From an uncultured Gammaproteobacteria bacterium (GTDB taxonomy: Bacteria; Pseudomonadota; Gammaproteobacteria; Magnimaribacterales; TMED112): DNA of 64,000 nucleotides. This document shows, in pieces, positions 4,505 to 41,704 of the stretch. A model generated the notes under the pieces. That model was not told the origin of the DNA. It saw nothing but the letters and a program-made list of their open reading frames with translations, and did no database searches. Location of the stretch: contig CAJXFH010000002.1 in assembly GCA_913052565.1 (NCBI GenBank), forward strand, positions 39,324 to 103,323, written 5' to 3'. Each line of letters starts with the position of its first letter. The first letter of the stretch is position 1. The translations under genes and the position numbers were made by a program.

Positions 4505-4522
4505 AGCTTTATATTAACAGAT

Positions 4523-4542
4523 TGTCACATTTCTGTCACATT
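4523..4542 (-). repeat. tandem direct repeat TGTCACATT x2 with 11-bp period, 19-38 bp upstream of the 98-aa ORF start
   Basis: The plus strand reads atTGTCACATTtcTGTCACATTattg. On the coding (minus) strand this is AATGTGACAgaAATGTGACAat. One helical turn of spacing suggests a protein-binding site. Confidence 0.5.
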
Positions 4543-4570
4543 ATTGTAATTTAAATGTTGAATAAGAAAA

Positions 4571-4711
4571 TTAGTTGTTTTCTTTTGCTTCAGAGATATT
4601 GGCGTTGTGCTTTTTCTTTCTTGAATACTTCTTTTTATCAGGTTCAATTTTATGTTTATATTTTGGTGTCCTTAAGTCTTTAACTAATGGATTACGCTTC
4701 TTTTTTTTCAT
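4571..4711 (-). CDS. 46-aa highly basic protein, ArfA-like (alternative ribosome-rescue factor candidate)
   Basis: Not in the track (under 60 aa). Manual translation gives MKKKKRNPLVKDLRTPKYKHKIEPDKKKYSRKKKHNANISEAKENN. The ATG lies 20 nt inside the tatC 3' end. The pattern P-x-[FY]-[KR]-x-[KR]-[VI]-E-x-x-KK...Y-x-RK-x-KH aligns with E. coli ArfA [23 protein letters not shown]. It fills an otherwise unexplained 187-nt gap. Confidence 0.5.
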   Translation of the reverse strand: MKKKKRNPLVKDLRTPKYKHKIEPDKKKYSRKKKHNANISEAKENN

Positions 4712-11988: not shown

Positions 11989-13198
11989 AGTATTTATTTT
12001 AGGATGGGCTTTAGCTGCAATTTTTTGGGCCTACTCAATATCTTGGATTTTTGACGCCGTAAACTACTATGGTGCAGGTACAGCTTTAAGCTTAACTATT
12101 AGTTTTTTGCTTGTTGGTTACGTTTCTATTTATTTTGGACTATTTTTGGTGGCGTTGAAATTTTTTAGAAACTCAAATTATAGGCCCTTTATATTTGCAA
12201 GCACATTTTTCATTTTAGAGTGGTTCAGATCATGGGTAATCACTGGCTTCCCTTGGCTAAATCTTGGTATGTTAAGTGAATATCTATGGGGTGCACTTCC
12301 AATGATAGGTGTTTCAGGAACATCATTTCTTATAGTATTAATTATTTCATTATTATTTGAGAACAAACACACACTTCTAAATAGAGGCGCAGCAGGATTA
12401 ATTTTAGTATTTTTATTGTTTGGCCCAGGCCACTACCAAAAAAGCGGTCAAGACACTTTAGATTTAACAATTATTCAGCCTTTAGACACTAATTTAAGTC
12501 AGATTATAAAAATGACAAATGACGCAGAATCTAACTTGGTAATTTGGCCTGAAGCTGTTGCTTCCTATGATCAAAATTTATTAGCAAAAATTAATAATAA
12601 GAATGTAATAGGCGGTTTTTTTCGTAAACAAGGAAAAGATTTCTATACCTCTGCCATCAACCTAGAAACAGGACACTATTTTGATAAAGAAAATTTAGTT
12701 CCCTTTGGAGAATTTCAGCCACTTGGTAATATGCTTAGTTCTTTTAATAAATTCTTCAATATTCCAAATTCAAATTTAAAAGTAGGAAATTCAATTCAAG
12801 ATAAAGCAGATTGGTCTGCTTTGATTTGTTGGGAGCTTGTATTCAACGACACCTTTACAAAAAGAGTTAAAGGGTCTGGTTATATTATTCACATGAGCAA
12901 TGATAAGTGGTATGGCGAAAGTATGCCAAGACAACACTTAAAACATGCAAAAGCCAGAGCAGTCGAATCCAATAAGTGGGTTGTAAGGTCTACATTAGAT
13001 GGTATTTCACAATTTATTAGCCCAAGAAGTGAAGAATCATCCGCTAAGCTTGAAAGAGGAGTTCAGGGCTCAATAACAAAAACAATTTATCTGAATTATA
13101 TAGATACTGCTTACGTCAAATATGGTGACTTGCCCTTATTAATAATATCATTCGTTTTCTTACTGATTGGATTAAAAAATAGAAGAAATGAAAAATAA
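11981..13198 (+). CDS. lnt: apolipoprotein N-acyltransferase (short form)
   Basis: 405 aa. It has N-terminal TM helices, a CN-hydrolase domain (WPE.., catalytic Cys context LICWELVF) and a terminal TM. The start is TTG. Confidence 0.8.
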   Translation: MTKVFILGWALAAIFWAYSISWIFDAVNYYGAGTALSLTISFLLVGYVSIYFGLFLVALKFFRNSNYRPFIFASTFFILEWFRSWVITGFPWLNLGMLSEYLWGALPMIGVSGTSFLIVLIISLLFENKHTLLNRGAAGLILVFLLFGPGHYQKSGQDTLDLTIIQPLDTNLSQIIKMTNDAESNLVIWPEAVASYDQNLLAKINNKNVIGGFFRKQGKDFYTSAINLETGHYFDKENLVPFGEFQPLGNMLSSFNKFFNIPNSNLKVGNSIQDKADWSALICWELVFNDTFTKRVKGSGYIIHMSNDKWYGESMPRQHLKHAKARAVESNKWVVRSTLDGISQFISPRSEESSAKLERGVQGSITKTIYLNYIDTAYVKYGDLPLLIISFVFLLIGLKNRRNEK

Positions 13199-13715
13199 GC
13201 TTTTAATTTTAATTCTTTTAACGCAATCTTTAATGGGTATGGAAATAAGTATCTCAATTGAAAATCAAACACTATCTTTAATTGAAAATTCAAAAACTAT
13301 TAAAATCTATAAAATTTCTTCATCGAAATATGGAGAAGGGTCGGAAGCAAACTCTTTTAAAACTCCTCTTGGTTTACATGAAATAAAGGAACTAATAGGT
13401 GCTGATGAAGCACTAGGTACAAGATTCATAGGAAGAGTGCCATCAGAAATTTACCCAATATATTCATCTGAGAAAATCAAAGTGGATGATGACGTAGTTC
13501 AGTCGAGAATTATGTGGCTTGATGGTCTTGAACAAGGAATCAATAAAGGCGAAGGAATAGACTCTTATAGCCGGTATATTTACATACATGGAACCCCTGA
13601 GGAGTGGTTATTAGGCAAAAAGGGCTCGAAAGGCTGTATTAGAATGGCCAATAAGGATGTTATAGAACTCTTTGATTATGTGCAAAAAGGCACTTTAGTT
13701 AGAATTAATAAATAG
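13188..13715 (+). CDS. L,D-transpeptidase (YkuD domain) with signal peptide
   Basis: 175 aa with the catalytic motif IHGTPEEWLLGKKGSKGCIRM (H..G.S.GC.R). Confidence 0.8.
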   Translation: MKNKLLILILLTQSLMGMEISISIENQTLSLIENSKTIKIYKISSSKYGEGSEANSFKTPLGLHEIKELIGADEALGTRFIGRVPSEIYPIYSSEKIKVDDDVVQSRIMWLDGLEQGINKGEGIDSYSRYIYIHGTPEEWLLGKKGSKGCIRMANKDVIELFDYVQKGTLVRINK

Positions 13716-13757
13716 CAATTATCTTTTAAAATAACCATTATTTATTCATAAAAAGTA

Positions 13758-13785
13758 TTGATATTATAAAATAAATATTTATTAT
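13758..13785 (+). promoter_or_regulatory. candidate sigma70 promoter (TTGATA - 16 bp - TATTAT)
   Basis: Each hexamer matches consensus at 5 of 6 positions. The predicted start is ~13792, immediately before the first hairpin. Such hexamers are common in AT-rich DNA, so support is weak. Confidence 0.3.
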
Positions 13786-13795
13786 ATATCTTTTA

Positions 13796-13848
13796 GTCAG
13801 TCTCTCCTCTCCCCCACGACTGACAAGCTAGGGGCTTCGGCCCCAAGC
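13796..13848 (+). ncRNA. unclassified GC-rich two-hairpin RNA element (leader or small RNA candidate)
   Basis: Hairpin 1 pairs GTCAGTC (13796-13802) with GACTGAC (13818-13824) around a 15-nt C/U-rich loop, TCTCCTCTCCCCCAC. Hairpin 2 is GCTAGGGGC-TTCG-GCCCCAAGC (13827-13848), closed by a UUCG tetraloop. It lies in an otherwise ~80% AT gap. Confidence 0.45.
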
Positions 13849-13862
13849 ATTTAAGAGAAATT

Positions 13863-13946
13863 ATGGATAAATTTGCAGACAACATAGAACTAGTAATACT
13901 TTTCACAATATTTGCAGTATTGTTGTTAGGAATTTCCAGTGTCTAG
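13863..13946 (+). CDS. 27-aa hydrophobic micro-protein candidate (single TM)
   Basis: Manual translation gives MDKFADNIELVILFTIFAVLLLGISSV. It starts 15 nt after hairpin 2 and ends 18 nt before the gpx start. No family is recognised. The evidence is coding potential only. Confidence 0.3.
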   Translation: MDKFADNIELVILFTIFAVLLLGISSV

Positions 13947-13964
13947 CTGTTAAAATCACACCCT

Positions 13965-14498
13965 ATGTTTAAAAAAGCCCTTATCACATTAGTTGCTTTC
14001 ATTAGTTTTGAGGCATTAAGTTGTAGCGATCTATTAAATACAGACGTCAAGGTACTTAATGAGAAAGAGTATAGAAACTTATGCGAATATAAGGACAAAA
14101 CAATACTTGTCGTAAATACAGCAAGTAAATGTGGCTTCACATATCAATATGAGCAATTAGAATCACTCCAAAGAAGATTTAAGGATCAAGGCTTTGTTGT
14201 GCTTGGATTCCCATCTAGAAATTTTATGGGTCAAGAATACAGTGATGAGGCTAAAGTAAGCGAGTTTTGTAAAGCAAAATTTGATGTAACTTTTCCATTG
14301 TTTTCAATAGCAAATGTTAGTGCTACAACAAAACACCCATTTTTTAAAAAACTATTCAAGAAGACATATGCCAGACCAGCATGGAACTTTCATAAATATT
14401 TAATTACACCGAATGGAGAAATAAAAAGCTTTTCTCATAGAATGGATCCAGAAGATCCAGAAATCCTTGCTGCAATTCAAGATTCAATTAATCTATAA
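13965..14498 (+). CDS. glutathione peroxidase family protein (Cys-type, signal peptide)
   Basis: 177 aa with the active-site context VNTASKCGFT and a WNF motif. Confidence 0.88.
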   Translation: MFKKALITLVAFISFEALSCSDLLNTDVKVLNEKEYRNLCEYKDKTILVVNTASKCGFTYQYEQLESLQRRFKDQGFVVLGFPSRNFMGQEYSDEAKVSEFCKAKFDVTFPLFSIANVSATTKHPFFKKLFKKTYARPAWNFHKYLITPNGEIKSFSHRMDPEDPEILAAIQDSINL

Positions 14499-15136
14499 CC
14501 ACTATCTTGCCCAACAATTACTATGTTTGGCCTGTCAACGGCAAATATACCCACGTCAATAACACCTTTAATGCTTAGTATATCGGCTTCTAGCGCATCA
14601 GGATTATTAATAACTAAGTGATGTAAGTCGATAATAGTATTATTAAGATCGCTTTTATATTCTCTAACTGTGATTTTATTTGTTAGGTTTTTAAGACTTT
14701 CTATAATTTGTGTTTTGTGGCTATCTTGTATTTCAATAGGCAAAGGAAATTCTCCTAGATCAGAAACGATTTTTGTTTCGTCAACAATGCAAATAAATTT
14801 CTTAGCCTTTTTAGCTATTCTTTTTTCACTAGTGTGTGCTCCACCCCCACCCTTAATAAGTGCTAGTGTTTTATCTACTTCATCTGCGCCATCAATATAG
14901 AAATCTACAATAGAATCTTCACCTAGCTCTTTAACCACAAAACCCAATTCATTCAAAAGATTGGTCGTTCTAATTGAGCTTGAATAAATATCTGATAATG
15001 AATTTTTTATATTTGGTAAGAACTCTTTAGTAAAAAAGTCTGTTGTGCTTCCTGTTCCAATGCCAATATTAAAGGGGCCAGGAACATTTGATAATATTTC
15101 AAAAGCTCCCAAAGCAGAATTATATTTCTGATTCAT
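14477..15136 (-). CDS. rpiA: ribose-5-phosphate isomerase A
   Basis: 219 aa with GIGTGST, DGADEVD and KGGGGA motifs, the same length as E. coli RpiA. It converges on gpx with a 22-nt overlap. Confidence 0.92.
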   Translation of the reverse strand: MNQKYNSALGAFEILSNVPGPFNIGIGTGSTTDFFTKEFLPNIKNSLSDIYSSSIRTTNLLNELGFVVKELGEDSIVDFYIDGADEVDKTLALIKGGGGAHTSEKRIAKKAKKFICIVDETKIVSDLGEFPLPIEIQDSHKTQIIESLKNLTNKITVREYKSDLNNTIIDLHHLVINNPDALEADILSIKGVIDVGIFAVDRPNIVIVGQDSGYRLIES

Positions 15137-15674
15137 AAATTTGGCTGTCTGTTACAATCTTATCTAATCTTACATCAAAGTCTTCTTGAAAATTATCTTC
15201 TATTAGCTGAAATTCATATCCTATTCCAATTAGGCTTGGTCGATTCTGTTTTTTTGTAAGTTTAAAGAAAGTTTTATCATAAAACCCCTTTCCAAAACCA
15301 ATTCGAAAAAGCGCTACATTAAAAGCTAGCAGGGGAATAAGAATAATATCAAGATTTCCAGTATTTATTTTTTTTGAGTCTCTTGGCTCATTAATGCCAA
15401 ATCTATTTTTTATATAAACACCATTATCTTCGTAAAAATTAAGATGATCATTTGTAATTTTTGGTAAGAAATATTTTTTATTTATATCTATATGAATATG
15501 AGGTTCGTTTTTAAAAGACTGATAGCATCCAATAGTTTTAGCTTCGTGGTATTCACTAACTAATCGAAGGTTATGATTTATTTTTTTTGATAGCTCTAAT
15601 ACCTGACCAATATCTAAGCTTTCACGTTTTTTAAGTAGATCTGATCTATAAAATAATTTAGACATCTGAATCAT
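15120..15674 (-). CDS. ygfA: 5-formyltetrahydrofolate cyclo-ligase
   Basis: 184 aa. It lies downstream of 6S RNA as in E. coli ssrS-ygfA, and it has a family-like GFGKGFYD motif. Confidence 0.8.
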   Translation of the reverse strand: MIQMSKLFYRSDLLKKRESLDIGQVLELSKKINHNLRLVSEYHEAKTIGCYQSFKNEPHIHIDINKKYFLPKITNDHLNFYEDNGVYIKNRFGINEPRDSKKINTGNLDIILIPLLAFNVALFRIGFGKGFYDKTFFKLTKKQNRPSLIGIGYEFQLIEDNFQEDFDVRLDKIVTDSQIYESEI

Positions 15675-15830
15675 TGTTTCCAGTCACCCTGAACCCAAAG
15701 GTCAGGTGGGCAACTCTTTTACCTAGTAAGGCCTCCTTGTTTAAGTAACGCACAGCTAAATAAAATCTGTTTCCCTTAATTTACATTATCGGTTCTAGAG
15801 TAAATTCCGAAAACCGATGATTCAGACAAT
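15662..15830 (-). ncRNA. ssrS: 6S RNA
   Basis: It lies between zapA and ygfA, exactly as in E. coli. The minus-strand 5' AUUGUCUGAAUCAUCGGUUUUC pairs with the 3' GGAAACAAUGAUUCAGAU to form the closing stem. The internal CACCUGACCUUUGGGUUCAGGGUGACUGG matches E. coli CACCUUGAACCAAGGGUUCAAGGGUUACAGCC. The 3' end overlaps the ygfA start codon. The ends are approximate. Confidence 0.8.
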
Positions 15831-15863
15831 TTAAATATATAACTATTTTCGATATTTTTGGAG

Positions 15864-16148
15864 TTATTGGTTAAGAAATATTTCTATTTTATTTATTAGA
15901 TCAGCAATATCCTGTGAAGATTCATTACTATCCTCTTCTGTCTTAGTTTTCAGTTTCTCATTCTCTATTGCTAATTGAAGAGCAGAATAAACGATAGCAT
16001 CATCAAGTTGTTCATTTGTGTGATCAATTTGTTCGATCAGGCCCAGTATTTTTTTCTCTGCTTTTTTAAAAGGCACATAATCACTGTAAGGAATCATAAA
16101 AGAAAATTTCCTGTCATTTAAGAACAGCTCAACTCTTTGTTCATTCAT
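15864..16148 (-). CDS. zapA: cell division protein ZapA
   Basis: 94 aa with a coiled-coil C-terminus. It resembles E. coli ZapA in its central region and lies in synteny with ssrS. Confidence 0.75.
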   Translation of the reverse strand: MNEQRVELFLNDRKFSFMIPYSDYVPFKKAEKKILGLIEQIDHTNEQLDDAIVYSALQLAIENEKLKTKTEEDSNESSQDIADLINKIEIFLNQ

Positions 16149-38445: not shown

Positions 38446-38472
38446 AAAAAAAAGGCCCCATAAAGGGGCCTT
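38446..38472 (-). terminator. rho-independent terminator of pyrD
   Basis: The minus strand reads AGGCCCC-UUUAU-GGGGCCU followed by U8, 19 nt after the pyrD stop. Confidence 0.7.
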
Positions 38473-38490
38473 CAATCAAGAATCTAAATA

Positions 38491-39684
38491 TTAAGCCACT
38501 GATTTTATTTCATCAGTCACCTTTTCAACTGGTAAAGGATTTCGAGACCCAACAGCCTCAGAAATTGAATTGAATCCATCAGCTTTCAGGAGCTTTACTA
38601 AACCTCTGTTGATTTCATTAATATTTTGAGGGCCATCAAAAATCATAGTTGTAATCATGTGGCACAAGCTCGCACCTGAAGTTATTTTTTCATATGCATC
38701 CTTTGCACTAAAGATTCCACCAACACCAATGATTGTTAATTTTCCTCTGGTTCTTCTATATACATGCCTTACTACATTAGTGGCAATTCTTTGTAATGGA
38801 AGTCCACTCATTGCACCTTTTCCTTTTGGCAGCAATCCCTTTGCAGTAGGGTATTCTTCTGGTCGATGTTCAGTATTGAATTCTGGTTTAGCAAGGTTTG
38901 TGCAAACCACACCATCTATTCCAAATTCGACGCAGGCATCAACAATTGTATTTATCTCTTCAATCGTCATGTCAGCAGCAAGCTTCACATATATTGGTTT
39001 ATCTGTAATAGGACGAATCCTTTTATTAATTGCTGTAAGCAAGGCATCAAGATTGCCTTTATCAACAAAAGGCTCACCATCTTGTGTATTTGGACAGCTT
39101 ATATTTACAGTGAAGTAGTCACCTATATCTTTAAATAGAGTCATAGTCTTGAGATAGTCCTCAATTGAGGTTTCTAATTGAAACTCAGGTGTTAGATTTG
39201 AGTTCGCTGCATTAATGCCGACACGTAACTCTCCAAAGTCTTCATTTTCCAATCTCTTAGAAATTTTCTCAGCACCTTCATTATTGAGGCCATACCAAAC
39301 AACTATTGCTTTTGATTTAACCATTCGAAATAGTCTTTTTCCTGGGTTACCAGGGCAAACTTCTCCAGTGAACGATCCTAGTTCTGCAAGACCAAATCCA
39401 AGAGAAGGATAAATCTTCGTTAATTCACCGTCTTTATCAAAACCAGCTGATAATCCAATTGGGTTTTTATATTCAACTCCATCGACTTCAGTGTTGAGGC
39501 TCTTATTCTCGTATTTAAAAAATAAGCTTGTAAGTGCTCTTGTAAAAAAATTACTTCCTAAAAAAACACCAACTCTTTTGAGTGAATAATGGGCTTCCTC
39601 TGGATCCATTAAAAAAATAACTGGGCGTAAAATTTGATACCCAATTCTCATAAAGAAATTTCTAATTCCTATAATGCTGTTCAT
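38491..39684 (-). CDS. pyrD: dihydroorotate dehydrogenase, class-2-like architecture
   Basis: 397 aa. It aligns by eye with E. coli PyrD (LDPE.AH, NP.GL.AGFDKDG, GFNN-like GLNNEG, IGVGGI). The catalytic-base motif reads NISCPNT rather than NISSPNT. The true start may be Met12 (39651). Confidence 0.85.
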   Translation of the reverse strand: MNSIIGIRNFFMRIGYQILRPVIFLMDPEEAHYSLKRVGVFLGSNFFTRALTSLFFKYENKSLNTEVDGVEYKNPIGLSAGFDKDGELTKIYPSLGFGLAELGSFTGEVCPGNPGKRLFRMVKSKAIVVWYGLNNEGAEKISKRLENEDFGELRVGINAANSNLTPEFQLETSIEDYLKTMTLFKDIGDYFTVNISCPNTQDGEPFVDKGNLDALLTAINKRIRPITDKPIYVKLAADMTIEEINTIVDACVEFGIDGVVCTNLAKPEFNTEHRPEEYPTAKGLLPKGKGAMSGLPLQRIATNVVRHVYRRTRGKLTIIGVGGIFSAKDAYEKITSGASLCHMITTMIFDGPQNINEINRGLVKLLKADGFNSISEAVGSRNPLPVEKVTDEIKSVA

Positions 39685-39935
39685 TTTTGCTCCTCTGTTA
39701 ACTTAAAATTAACAATTATTAAAAATGATACTATATCACAATATAATTGGAAGTTATAATAACTATAATTGATATTTATAGTACGACAATATAAATGGTA
39801 TTTATGGCTGTTTACTAAAAAAAAATCTTCATTCTCTATGCCTTTGAATCTGAGCCCCTAAAATTCAAACTTTTAACAATTCTTTTTTGTTGCATGAACG
39901 ATGCATTCATATAGTATTAAGTTATCTAAATATTT

Positions 39936-41216: not shown

Positions 41217-41704
41217 TGGAGTTTGAATATTGGATTGAATTGGTAAACAAAATAGTGAATATAATCACAGGGCCAGCGGTGATCTTTAGTGTCTGGTTTC
41301 TTGTTGCGCAAATACAAACTCAAATTAAAGTCGGTAAGGCAGCATCTCGTCAATCAATTGCAGAAGCACATCAGGAAGTTACTCTTGCAGGCCTTGACCC
41401 ACTTTTAATGAGAGCCAAATTGAAACTTATAAAAAAAGAAGAGTTATCTATTGATGAAGAAGTTGGTTTAAGAATACATATGACAGCAATTTTAAGAGCA
41501 AGAGAAAATCACTTTTATCAACATAAGATGGGCATGTTAGATGACGAAGAATGGAAAACCATGAGAAAAGCACTAGGAACGTTATTTATCGATAACACAC
41601 TAAATCTGGATATTTGGAGTAAAAGTAAATCAACTTTTAATCCTGAGTTTGTCCGTATAGTTGACGAAGAAATAGAAATGAGAAAGGATACCTTTAAAAA
41701 ATGA
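41216..41704 (+). CDS. hypothetical single-TM helical protein
   Basis: 162 aa counting from the ATG that overlaps the pit stop (TGATG). It has an N-terminal TM (IITGPAVIFSVWFLVAQI) followed by a charged helical region. No family is recognised. The track start 41135 lies inside pit. Confidence 0.5.
   Translation: MEFEYWIELVNKIVNIITGPAVIFSVWFLVAQIQTQIKVGKAASRQSIAEAHQEVTLAGLDPLLMRAKLKLIKKEELSIDEEVGLRIHMTAILRARENHFYQHKMGMLDDEEWKTMRKALGTLFIDNTLNLDIWSKSKSTFNPEFVRIVDEEIEMRKDTFKK

Follow-up and report, generated by a model that had tools for sequence, protein, structure and literature searches.

The 249 nt gap (positions 13716-13964) that separates ldt from gpx, the gene for a glutathione peroxidase, was examined in a 64 000 nt stretch of contig CAJXFH010000002.1, referred to here as the window. 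When species-representative genomes were searched with the gpx protein, the source of the window was placed in the SAR86 cluster of the Gammaproteobacteria, and the SAR86-type loci designated L001-L020 were recruited without reference to the RNA discussed below. SAR86 bacteria are among the most abundant heterotrophs of the surface ocean and have streamlined genomes; to our knowledge, almost nothing is known of gene regulation in this group, whose protein regulators are very few. With a GC content of about 33%, the window is AT-rich; about 95% of it is coding, and the ldt-gpx gap had been singled out in an original prediction, made from the sequence alone, as one of only two gaps of about 250 bp. 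That count was too low, several further gaps of 130-360 nt being present in the window. The ldt-gpx gap contains a sigma-70-type promoter, two adjacent hairpins that together make up an RNA core, and a micro-open reading frame (micro-ORF), provisionally named mpA, which as predicted ends 18 nt before gpx (Table 1). This element is conserved far above its neighbouring genes.

Table 1. Features at the ldt-gpx locus. Positions refer to the window, except those of mpB, which is absent from the window and is placed by its coordinates in two related loci.
Feature	Position	Strand	Description
ldt	13188-13715		YkuD-type L,D-transpeptidase; upstream neighbour of the gap
A/T-rich block	13738-13757	+	TTATTTATTCATAAAAAGTA; upstream of the -35 hexamer; UP-element-like, putative UP function
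Promoter	13758-13785	+	Sigma-70-type, TTGATA-16-TATTAT; 10/12 positions match
RNA core (both hairpins)	13794-13853	+	Covariance model R1, 85.3 bits, E = 6e-20
Hairpin 1	13796-13824	+	7 bp perfect stem, GUCAGUC (13796-13802) with GACUGAC (13818-13824)
Hairpin 2	13827-13848	+	GCUAGGGGC-UUCG-GCCCCAAGC; terminator-type
mpA	13863-13946	+	27 aa single-helix membrane microprotein, MDKFADNIELVILFTIFAVLLLGISSV; unannotated
gpx	13965-14498	+	Glutathione peroxidase with N-terminal signal peptide ending in Cys; Pfam GSHPx, 7e-29
mpB	L013:2656-2764; L016:2809-2914		Second micro-ORF

Hairpin 1 was found exactly where it had been predicted, with its perfect stem and a C/U-rich loop of 15 nt (UCUCCUCUCCCCCAC, 13803-13817), the first 13 nt of which, UCUCCUCUCCCCC, are invariant. 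Hairpin 2 had been described as a 9 bp stem with a UUCG loop and only a weak U tract behind it; the loop, the position and the weak U tract were borne out, but the stem proved to consist of five G-C pairs, one A.A mismatch and three further pairs. Its core, GGGGC-UUCG-GCCCC, is the only hairpin with five all-G-C base pairs in the 64 kb. The 60 nt core folds with -24.8 kcal/mol (z = -5.1, none of 200 shuffled sequences being as stable) and adopts the two-hairpin fold in 86% of the ensemble; in six lineages the same fold takes up 65-96% of the ensemble and z ranges from -3.4 to -5.1 (-2.5 on the minus strand). The consensus fold comprises the two hairpins only. A three-way junction, in which an outer helix would sequester the ribosome-binding site of the micro-ORF, has the lowest free energy for the window sequence and does not appear in the consensus. 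A pseudoknot or antiterminator between the C run of the loop and the GGGG of hairpin 2 was likewise rejected: the linker between the hairpins measures 1-7 nt across lineages and only 1 nt in the L016, L017, L086, L101 and L106 types, where an H-type pseudoknot is sterically excluded, and the alternative 4 bp helix between loop and hairpin 2 would be far weaker than both hairpins. Nor does the element have the features of a riboswitch or attenuator, since its hairpins are separate and the consensus fold holds no conserved alternative pairing with the terminator.

The complete module, in the order sigma-70 promoter, hairpin 1, hairpin 2 and micro-ORF, separates ldt from gpx in 18 of the 20 SAR86-type species loci (L001-L018). 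In the two most distant, L019 and L020, whose gpx is 46-51% identical, ldt abuts gpx and promoter, RNA and micro-ORF are all missing; the three were therefore gained or lost as a unit, either through a lineage-specific insertion or through loss in L019 and L020. A metagenome scan with a pattern made up of the loop and the hairpin 2 core only returned 72 stretches, of which 64 were AT-rich marine contigs carrying the module in full and eight were GC-rich chance matches. The gene order lnt-ldt-element-micro-ORF(s)-gpx-rpiA is common to all 83 loci, the window included. The 5' arm of hairpin 1 and the 13 loop nucleotides show no difference in any of the 19 genomes that were recruited without the RNA (19/19), in which the hairpin 2 core is also invariant, and the 5' arm does not vary in the 64 metagenome matches either, although it lay outside the search pattern. 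When the window was compared with the gpx-recruited loci (18 genomes, L017 being left out for an N in its sequence), a 21 nt run, AGUCAGUC followed by UCUCCUCUCCCCC, was identical throughout, whereas in the 390 nt of gpx that are best conserved, those around the catalytic NTASKCG motif, 38% of sites were invariant and the longest invariant run was 5 nt; the flanking proteins are 44-79% identical. Covariance model R1, for which 49 distinct sequences were used, detects a single copy in the window and likewise in each SAR86 locus, and gave zero matches among 60 non-SAR86 gpx loci; extra copies or paralogues were found neither in the window nor in about 680 kb of collected loci nor in viral contigs. 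Identical across the SAR86 order, the element is among the most constrained sequences outside ribosomal RNA (rRNA) and transfer RNA (tRNA) in these genomes, and it provides a simple DNA signature for SAR86 contigs.

The pattern of change among relatives shows at which level this constraint acts. Hairpin 1 is paired in 100% of alignment cells over 69 distinct sequences, and its only changes, found at two positions in 13 sequences, are from A to G in the 3' arm, converting U-A into U-G pairs. Such changes preserve pairing in the plus-strand RNA only, which implies constraint at the RNA level and on the plus strand. In the lower stem of hairpin 2, all four pairs have changed on both sides (variants GCUA...AAGC, CUAG...CUAG and AAUG...CAUU), giving 39 covarying cells as against 17.8 in shuffled alignments, none of 500 of which reached 39. 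The original prediction was to be given up if relatives lacked conservation and covariation; the alignment revealed instead extreme conservation, with covariation in the lower stem of hairpin 2 and U-G wobbles alone in hairpin 1. These observations also bear on the proposal of a DNA operator in the inverted repeat GTCAGTC-N15-GACTGAC, at which a dimeric factor bound downstream of the start site would repress the gpx operon, the RNA structure being incidental. Its half-sites do form a perfect and invariant palindrome beside the promoter, but the spacers of operators are not normally conserved, and here 13 nt of the spacer are invariant, all pyrimidine and strongly strand-asymmetric; moreover, the A to G changes break the symmetry of the DNA while sparing the pairs of the RNA, and the adjoining hairpin 2 carries compensatory changes typical of RNA. 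We consider an operator improbable.

Promoter-like matches occur in the AT-rich window at chance density (eight found, 7.9 expected), and the TTGATA-16-TATTAT sequence picked out in the original prediction is credible because it is conserved in relatives, and not from the hexamer match alone. The same hexamers, with a spacer of 16-17 nt, recur in nearly all relatives, and the sequence has the hexamers, the spacer length (16-18 nt), the placement and the conservation of a sigma-70 promoter. Upstream of it, the block TTTATTTATAAAAACTA is nearly invariant and occupies the same place in L001-L018. The distance from the end of the -10 hexamer to hairpin 1 is 5-12 nt across lineages; transcription is predicted to start at about 13790-13796, which would let hairpin 1 begin at approximately position +1 to +5. 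Between distant clades the hexamer spacer differs in sequence, and this argues against an operator inside the promoter itself. Immediately after the ldt stop codon (13716-13757 in the window, and at the equivalent place in L003-L018) there is an AT-rich palindrome of lineage-dependent sequence, for example GTTATTTATAAAAATAAC in L004 (-14.8 kcal/mol, z = -6.9), which is weak in the window (z = -1.0). It may be an AT-rich ldt terminator that overlaps the A/T block upstream of the promoter.

The micro-ORF that had been predicted downstream of the hairpins is present in all 83 loci, with a length of 27-33 aa and nine invariant residues (E9, L10, L13, I16, F17, L20, G23, I24 and S25). Over 23 codons, variable sites number 15, nine and 23 at codon positions 1, 2 and 3, respectively, and pairwise synonymous to nonsynonymous differences stand at 13602:11355 in frame as against 2641:23242 and 860:24332 in the other two frames. 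These codon statistics are decisive, and mpA is a real protein-coding gene. There is no promoter-sized gap between mpA and gpx, and in the lineages of L014, L015 and L018 the gpx ATG overlaps the stop codon of mpA (AAUGGUUAA), suggesting that in this clade translation of gpx is coupled to that of mpA. The gpx product, to judge from its signal peptide, is a candidate lipoprotein, and its operon links the element to peroxide defence. A second conserved micro-ORF of 34-35 aa, mpB (e.g. MSKHISDIAEFLKQYPLWGCAFFGCGYLIGLSIS), lies between hairpin 2 and mpA in the L013, L016, L017, L081, L086, L099, L101, L106 and L130 types; its coding signature is positive but weaker than that of mpA, and it begins 10-14 nt past the U tract of hairpin 2, at a start codon that lacks a Shine-Dalgarno sequence. 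In Pfam and NCBIfam, mpA had no match at E <= 10, two longer variants giving chance-level matches only, and mpB had none; neither microprotein sequence occurs exactly in a collection of 15 billion proteins, and existing gene calls on ten long contigs leave the ldt-gpx gap empty. Thus mpA and mpB are microprotein families never annotated before, two additions that standard gene callers had missed.

The coding status of mpA is relevant to two further explanations. According to the first, the hairpins serve only to terminate the upstream lnt-ldt operon, some transcription reading through to gpx, and the micro-ORF is there by chance. Such an explanation would agree with the terminator-like form of hairpin 2 in several lineages and with the direct ldt-gpx junction of the outgroups, and the original prediction had named a simple ldt terminator as the finding that would overturn it. 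However, no U tract follows hairpin 1, a conserved promoter precedes it, termination does not require a 21 nt invariant run, the micro-ORF is under strong in-frame purifying selection, and in most lineages a separate AT-rich palindrome directly follows the ldt stop codon. We regard this explanation as very improbable. The second, which seems to us equally far-fetched, is that of a type I toxin-antitoxin-like system, mpA being a hydrophobic toxin silenced by its structured 5' untranslated region (UTR) and by an antisense RNA. A 27 aa single-helix hydrophobic peptide behind a highly structured leader is what such a system would present, but such loci are usually multicopy or patchily distributed, and mpA is a single-copy gene, strictly syntenic across genomes despite the divergence of its flanking proteins, and apparently translationally coupled to gpx; the outer helix predicted to sequester the Shine-Dalgarno sequence of the window has no counterpart in the consensus, neither a promoter nor a structure conserved on the antisense strand came to light, and folding is weaker on the minus strand.

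The capacity of hairpin 2 to terminate transcription is likely to differ between lineages, as the number of U residues in the 9 nt past the stem varies from two to eight. U7-U9 directly follows a minimal hairpin in the L016, L017, L081, L086, L099, L101, L106 and L130 types, and U5-U7 follows hairpin 2 in the L013 and L010 types; the tails of the window (AUUUAAGAG) and of the large L084-type clade (AAAUUUAAG) have 2-3 U. A terminator scan accordingly flagged hairpin 2 in L016 and L013 and did not flag it in the window. Elsewhere in the window, a canonical intrinsic terminator, GAAGGCCCC-UUUAU-GGGGCCUUU with a U run, follows gene 38491-39684 at 38451-38473 on the minus strand, so this genome does employ GC-hairpin terminators in the style of hairpin 2. 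Transcript-like contig ends were sought by way of the gpx protein, and only long metagenome contigs came back. The first start codon is found 10-21 nt past hairpin 2 in most lineages, so that transcription of the downstream genes has to pass through the hairpins. That the RNA is the 5' leader of a microprotein-gpx operon is well supported.

The original prediction had left two readings side by side, a structured leader and a small RNA (sRNA) with an anti-Shine-Dalgarno-like loop. The leader has stood up, with a conserved promoter, hairpins ahead of the start codon and mpA a gene; for the sRNA, the U7-U9 terminators of several lineages speak in favour, and the weak or absent U tract of the window and of a large sister clade speaks against it as a universal role, nor was a target found. 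Our preferred reading, to which we would give a probability of roughly 40%, combines the two in a dual-output locus, in which one share of the transcripts would stop or be processed past hairpin 2 and work by base-pairing of the loop, and the rest would form the mpA(-mpB)-gpx messenger RNA (mRNA). On this hypothesis the module would be transcribed as a unit of its own, peculiar to the SAR86 order, from a strong sigma-70 promoter with a start 0-5 nt ahead of hairpin 1. The RNA would open with a 5'-terminal hairpin that shows the invariant loop in single-stranded form, with a hairpin of the intrinsic-terminator type directly after it. Part of the transcripts would be stopped or cut just past hairpin 2 to give an RNA of about 55-60 nt, similar to the cyanobacterial sRNA Yfr1, and this short fraction would probably be large in the U7-U9 lineages and small in the window. 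The remaining transcripts would read through and serve as mRNA for mpA, for mpB in some lineages, and for gpx, with coupled translation. The invariant loop would be the working part, and most likely pairs with purine-rich, Shine-Dalgarno-like RNA. In one clade, which has a spacer of 41-46 nt, such pairing could take place in cis, as a strong Shine-Dalgarno sequence there, GGAGAGG, is the exact 7 nt complement of CCUCUCC in the loop (about -13 kcal/mol); elsewhere it may occur in trans, on one or more conserved targets.

A number of results weigh against this dual-output reading. When the loop was tested against the 64 translation-start regions of the window, duplex energies were no better than those of shuffled loops, and the exact complement of the loop occurs in the window only at the element itself. 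The sole long complement elsewhere in the window, GUGGGAGGGGGC, is a run of glycine codons (GGGIANTF motif, about 200-225) inside pgk, the gene within which the window begins and which is followed by a class I fructose-bisphosphate aldolase gene (711-1724); this match is probably coincidental. No loop partner conserved across clades was found within the operon mRNA, and comparison with the rRNA of the Escherichia coli rrnH operon, taken as a proxy for SAR86 rRNA, gave nothing above shuffled loops. With 2-3 U, an sRNA cannot be released by simple termination in the window or in the L084-type clade, and both the 5' and the 3' ends of the transcript are predictions. The invariance of the loop and hairpin 2 core in the metagenome set was imposed by the search pattern, so that the unbiased sample is that of the 19 genomes. 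Finally, the stem of hairpin 1 is invariant where a stem that does no more than present a seed would usually covary, and this hints that the stem itself is recognized, for example by a protein.

Much of the above could also be accommodated by a purely cis-acting 5' UTR that yields no functional free sRNA, and that would act as an ompA-like stabilizer of a highly expressed mpA-gpx mRNA by means of its 5'-terminal hairpin and GC clamp, as a structured platform for initiation at start codons without a Shine-Dalgarno sequence, or as the site at which a protein (S1 or a dedicated one, perhaps an oxidative-stress regulator) binds the loop. We take this to be a serious alternative, if one still short of an even chance. 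What is kept universally is the promoter, both hairpins and the short distance to the start codon, and not the U tract, which the window and the L084 clade have only in weak form. A Shine-Dalgarno-like motif is present in only 14 of the 64 start regions of the window, and the one clade with the 41-46 nt spacer is the one that has acquired a strong Shine-Dalgarno sequence. The predicted position of hairpin 1 at the extreme 5' end of the transcript, the sequence-invariant stem, which suits recognition by a protein, and the absence of an RNA target from the searches made all point in the same direction. On the other hand, a stabilizer has no need of a 13 nt invariant loop, no candidate for the binding protein is known, and the canonical terminators (hairpin plus U7-U9) that several lineages place 10-14 nt ahead of the first ORF would be costly if they had no other role. 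The dual-output reading can be carried one step further, to a lineage-wide SAR86 riboregulator of about 55-60 nt that uses its invariant anti-Shine-Dalgarno-like loop to control one or more conserved mRNAs in trans, as a functional counterpart of Yfr1, and whose locus also encodes membrane microproteins working with a secreted glutathione peroxidase. This extension is rather doubtful; should a short RNA indeed be released and act in trans, SAR86 would have its first defined riboregulator, equipped with a 13 nt seed, and a dual-function RNA central to peroxide defence in an abundant ocean heterotroph.

The surroundings of the element are as compact as its genome would lead one to expect. Indeed, gpx (+) and rpiA (-) are convergent and overlap by 22 nt (14477-14498), which leaves no space for a terminator between them. 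A likely 6S RNA gene (ssrS) was located at 15659-15831 on the minus strand, in the gap at 15675-15863, between zapA (15864-16148) and the gene for 5-formyltetrahydrofolate cyclo-ligase (15120-15674), which is the classic zapA-ssrS-ygfA layout of the Gammaproteobacteria. It aligns with the full length of model RF00013 with 38.4 bits (local E = 1.3e-6); as the gathering score is 46.4, a standard Rfam scan misses it. A scan of the window with the 4227 covariance models of Rfam 15 at gathering scores found only a tRNA; at E <= 0.05 the whole window gave the tRNA, the sub-threshold 6S RNA and a weak Plastid-ycf2 match on the strand opposite the tRNA (E = 0.0093, well short of its gathering score), and three other gaps of 190-300 nt (39685-39935, 41217-41517 and 4505-4691) had no match at that threshold. 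For the element itself, a permissive scan of 13600-14100 returned unrelated families with a best E-value of 1.6, in agreement with the original prediction, which could match it to no riboswitch or sRNA family, and its sequence appeared in no paper of the literature searched. An abundant SAR86 non-coding RNA, found in marine metatranscriptomes (Shi et al., 2009) near carbon-metabolism genes, is mentioned by Dupont et al. (2012; PMC3358033; their Supplementary Figure S5); on the strength of that mention, we neither claim nor exclude that it is the present element, the 6S RNA or the occupant of another gap in the window.

In its architecture the SAR86 element most resembles Yfr1, to judge by the published description. 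Yfr1 is an sRNA of 54-69 nt in which an unpaired ultraconserved undecanucleotide, ACUCCUCACAC, lies between two stem-loops, the 5' one of 6-10 bp and the 3' one a GC-rich hairpin of 6-9 bp with a U tail (Voss et al., 2007; PMC2190773). The two share a tiny size, as predicted for the SAR86 RNA, a 5' stem-loop, a 3' GC-rich hairpin of the terminator type, an ultraconserved unpaired C/U-rich motif, streamlined marine hosts with few protein regulators, and conservation throughout a lineage. The SAR86 core fits the size and hairpins of Yfr1 as far as predicted ends allow, with a U tail in several lineages and a weak one in the window. However, ACUCCUCACAC is absent from the SAR86 element, whose own motif lies inside the loop of hairpin 1 and not between the hairpins; there is no sequence similarity or Rfam match, the host phylum is another, and the SAR86 RNA is fused to a microprotein-gpx operon, with a terminator that is weak in several lineages. 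A second point of comparison is offered by the Cuckoo/CcsR (RSs0680, alpha-r14) sRNAs of the Alphaproteobacteria, which consist of two to four adjacent hairpins, each with CCUCCUCCC in its loop, on variable stems with compensatory changes (PMC4615179). Common to these and the SAR86 element are C/U-rich, anti-Shine-Dalgarno-like hairpin loops, a linked and co-transcribed small ORF and a connection with stress. In the Cuckoo/CcsR sRNAs the stress concerned is oxidative. In contrast to them, the SAR86 element has a single CU-loop hairpin with its own UCUCCUCUCCCCC motif, a second hairpin with a UUCG loop, a hairpin 1 stem that is invariant save for two U-G wobbles, a gammaproteobacterial host and a small ORF that is downstream and not upstream.

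Precedents for a dual output are provided by sRNAs that derive from attenuator or riboswitch leaders (such as rnTrpL and SreA) and by dual-function sRNAs with a small protein of their own (SgrS/SgrT and RNAIII/hld). With these the SAR86 locus would have in common a single promoter that gives rise to a short, terminated, structured RNA and to a longer mRNA, and a small protein encoded on the same transcript; it differs in having no evident ligand or ribosome switch, in hairpins that do not overlap, and in a putative pairing part that lies upstream of the ORF. The ompA-type 5' UTR stabilizer, which depends on structure and has no terminator-like U tract, is resembled in the hairpin at the extreme 5' end, in the second hairpin shortly ahead of the ribosome-binding region, and in the association with the mRNA of a highly expressed envelope protein, but such stabilizers do not need an invariant 13 nt loop. 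By this comparison the element is a member of neither the Yfr1 nor the Cuckoo family, while resembling both in its possible mode of action, and the locus is best described as a new RNA family together with new microprotein families, each of a known kind.

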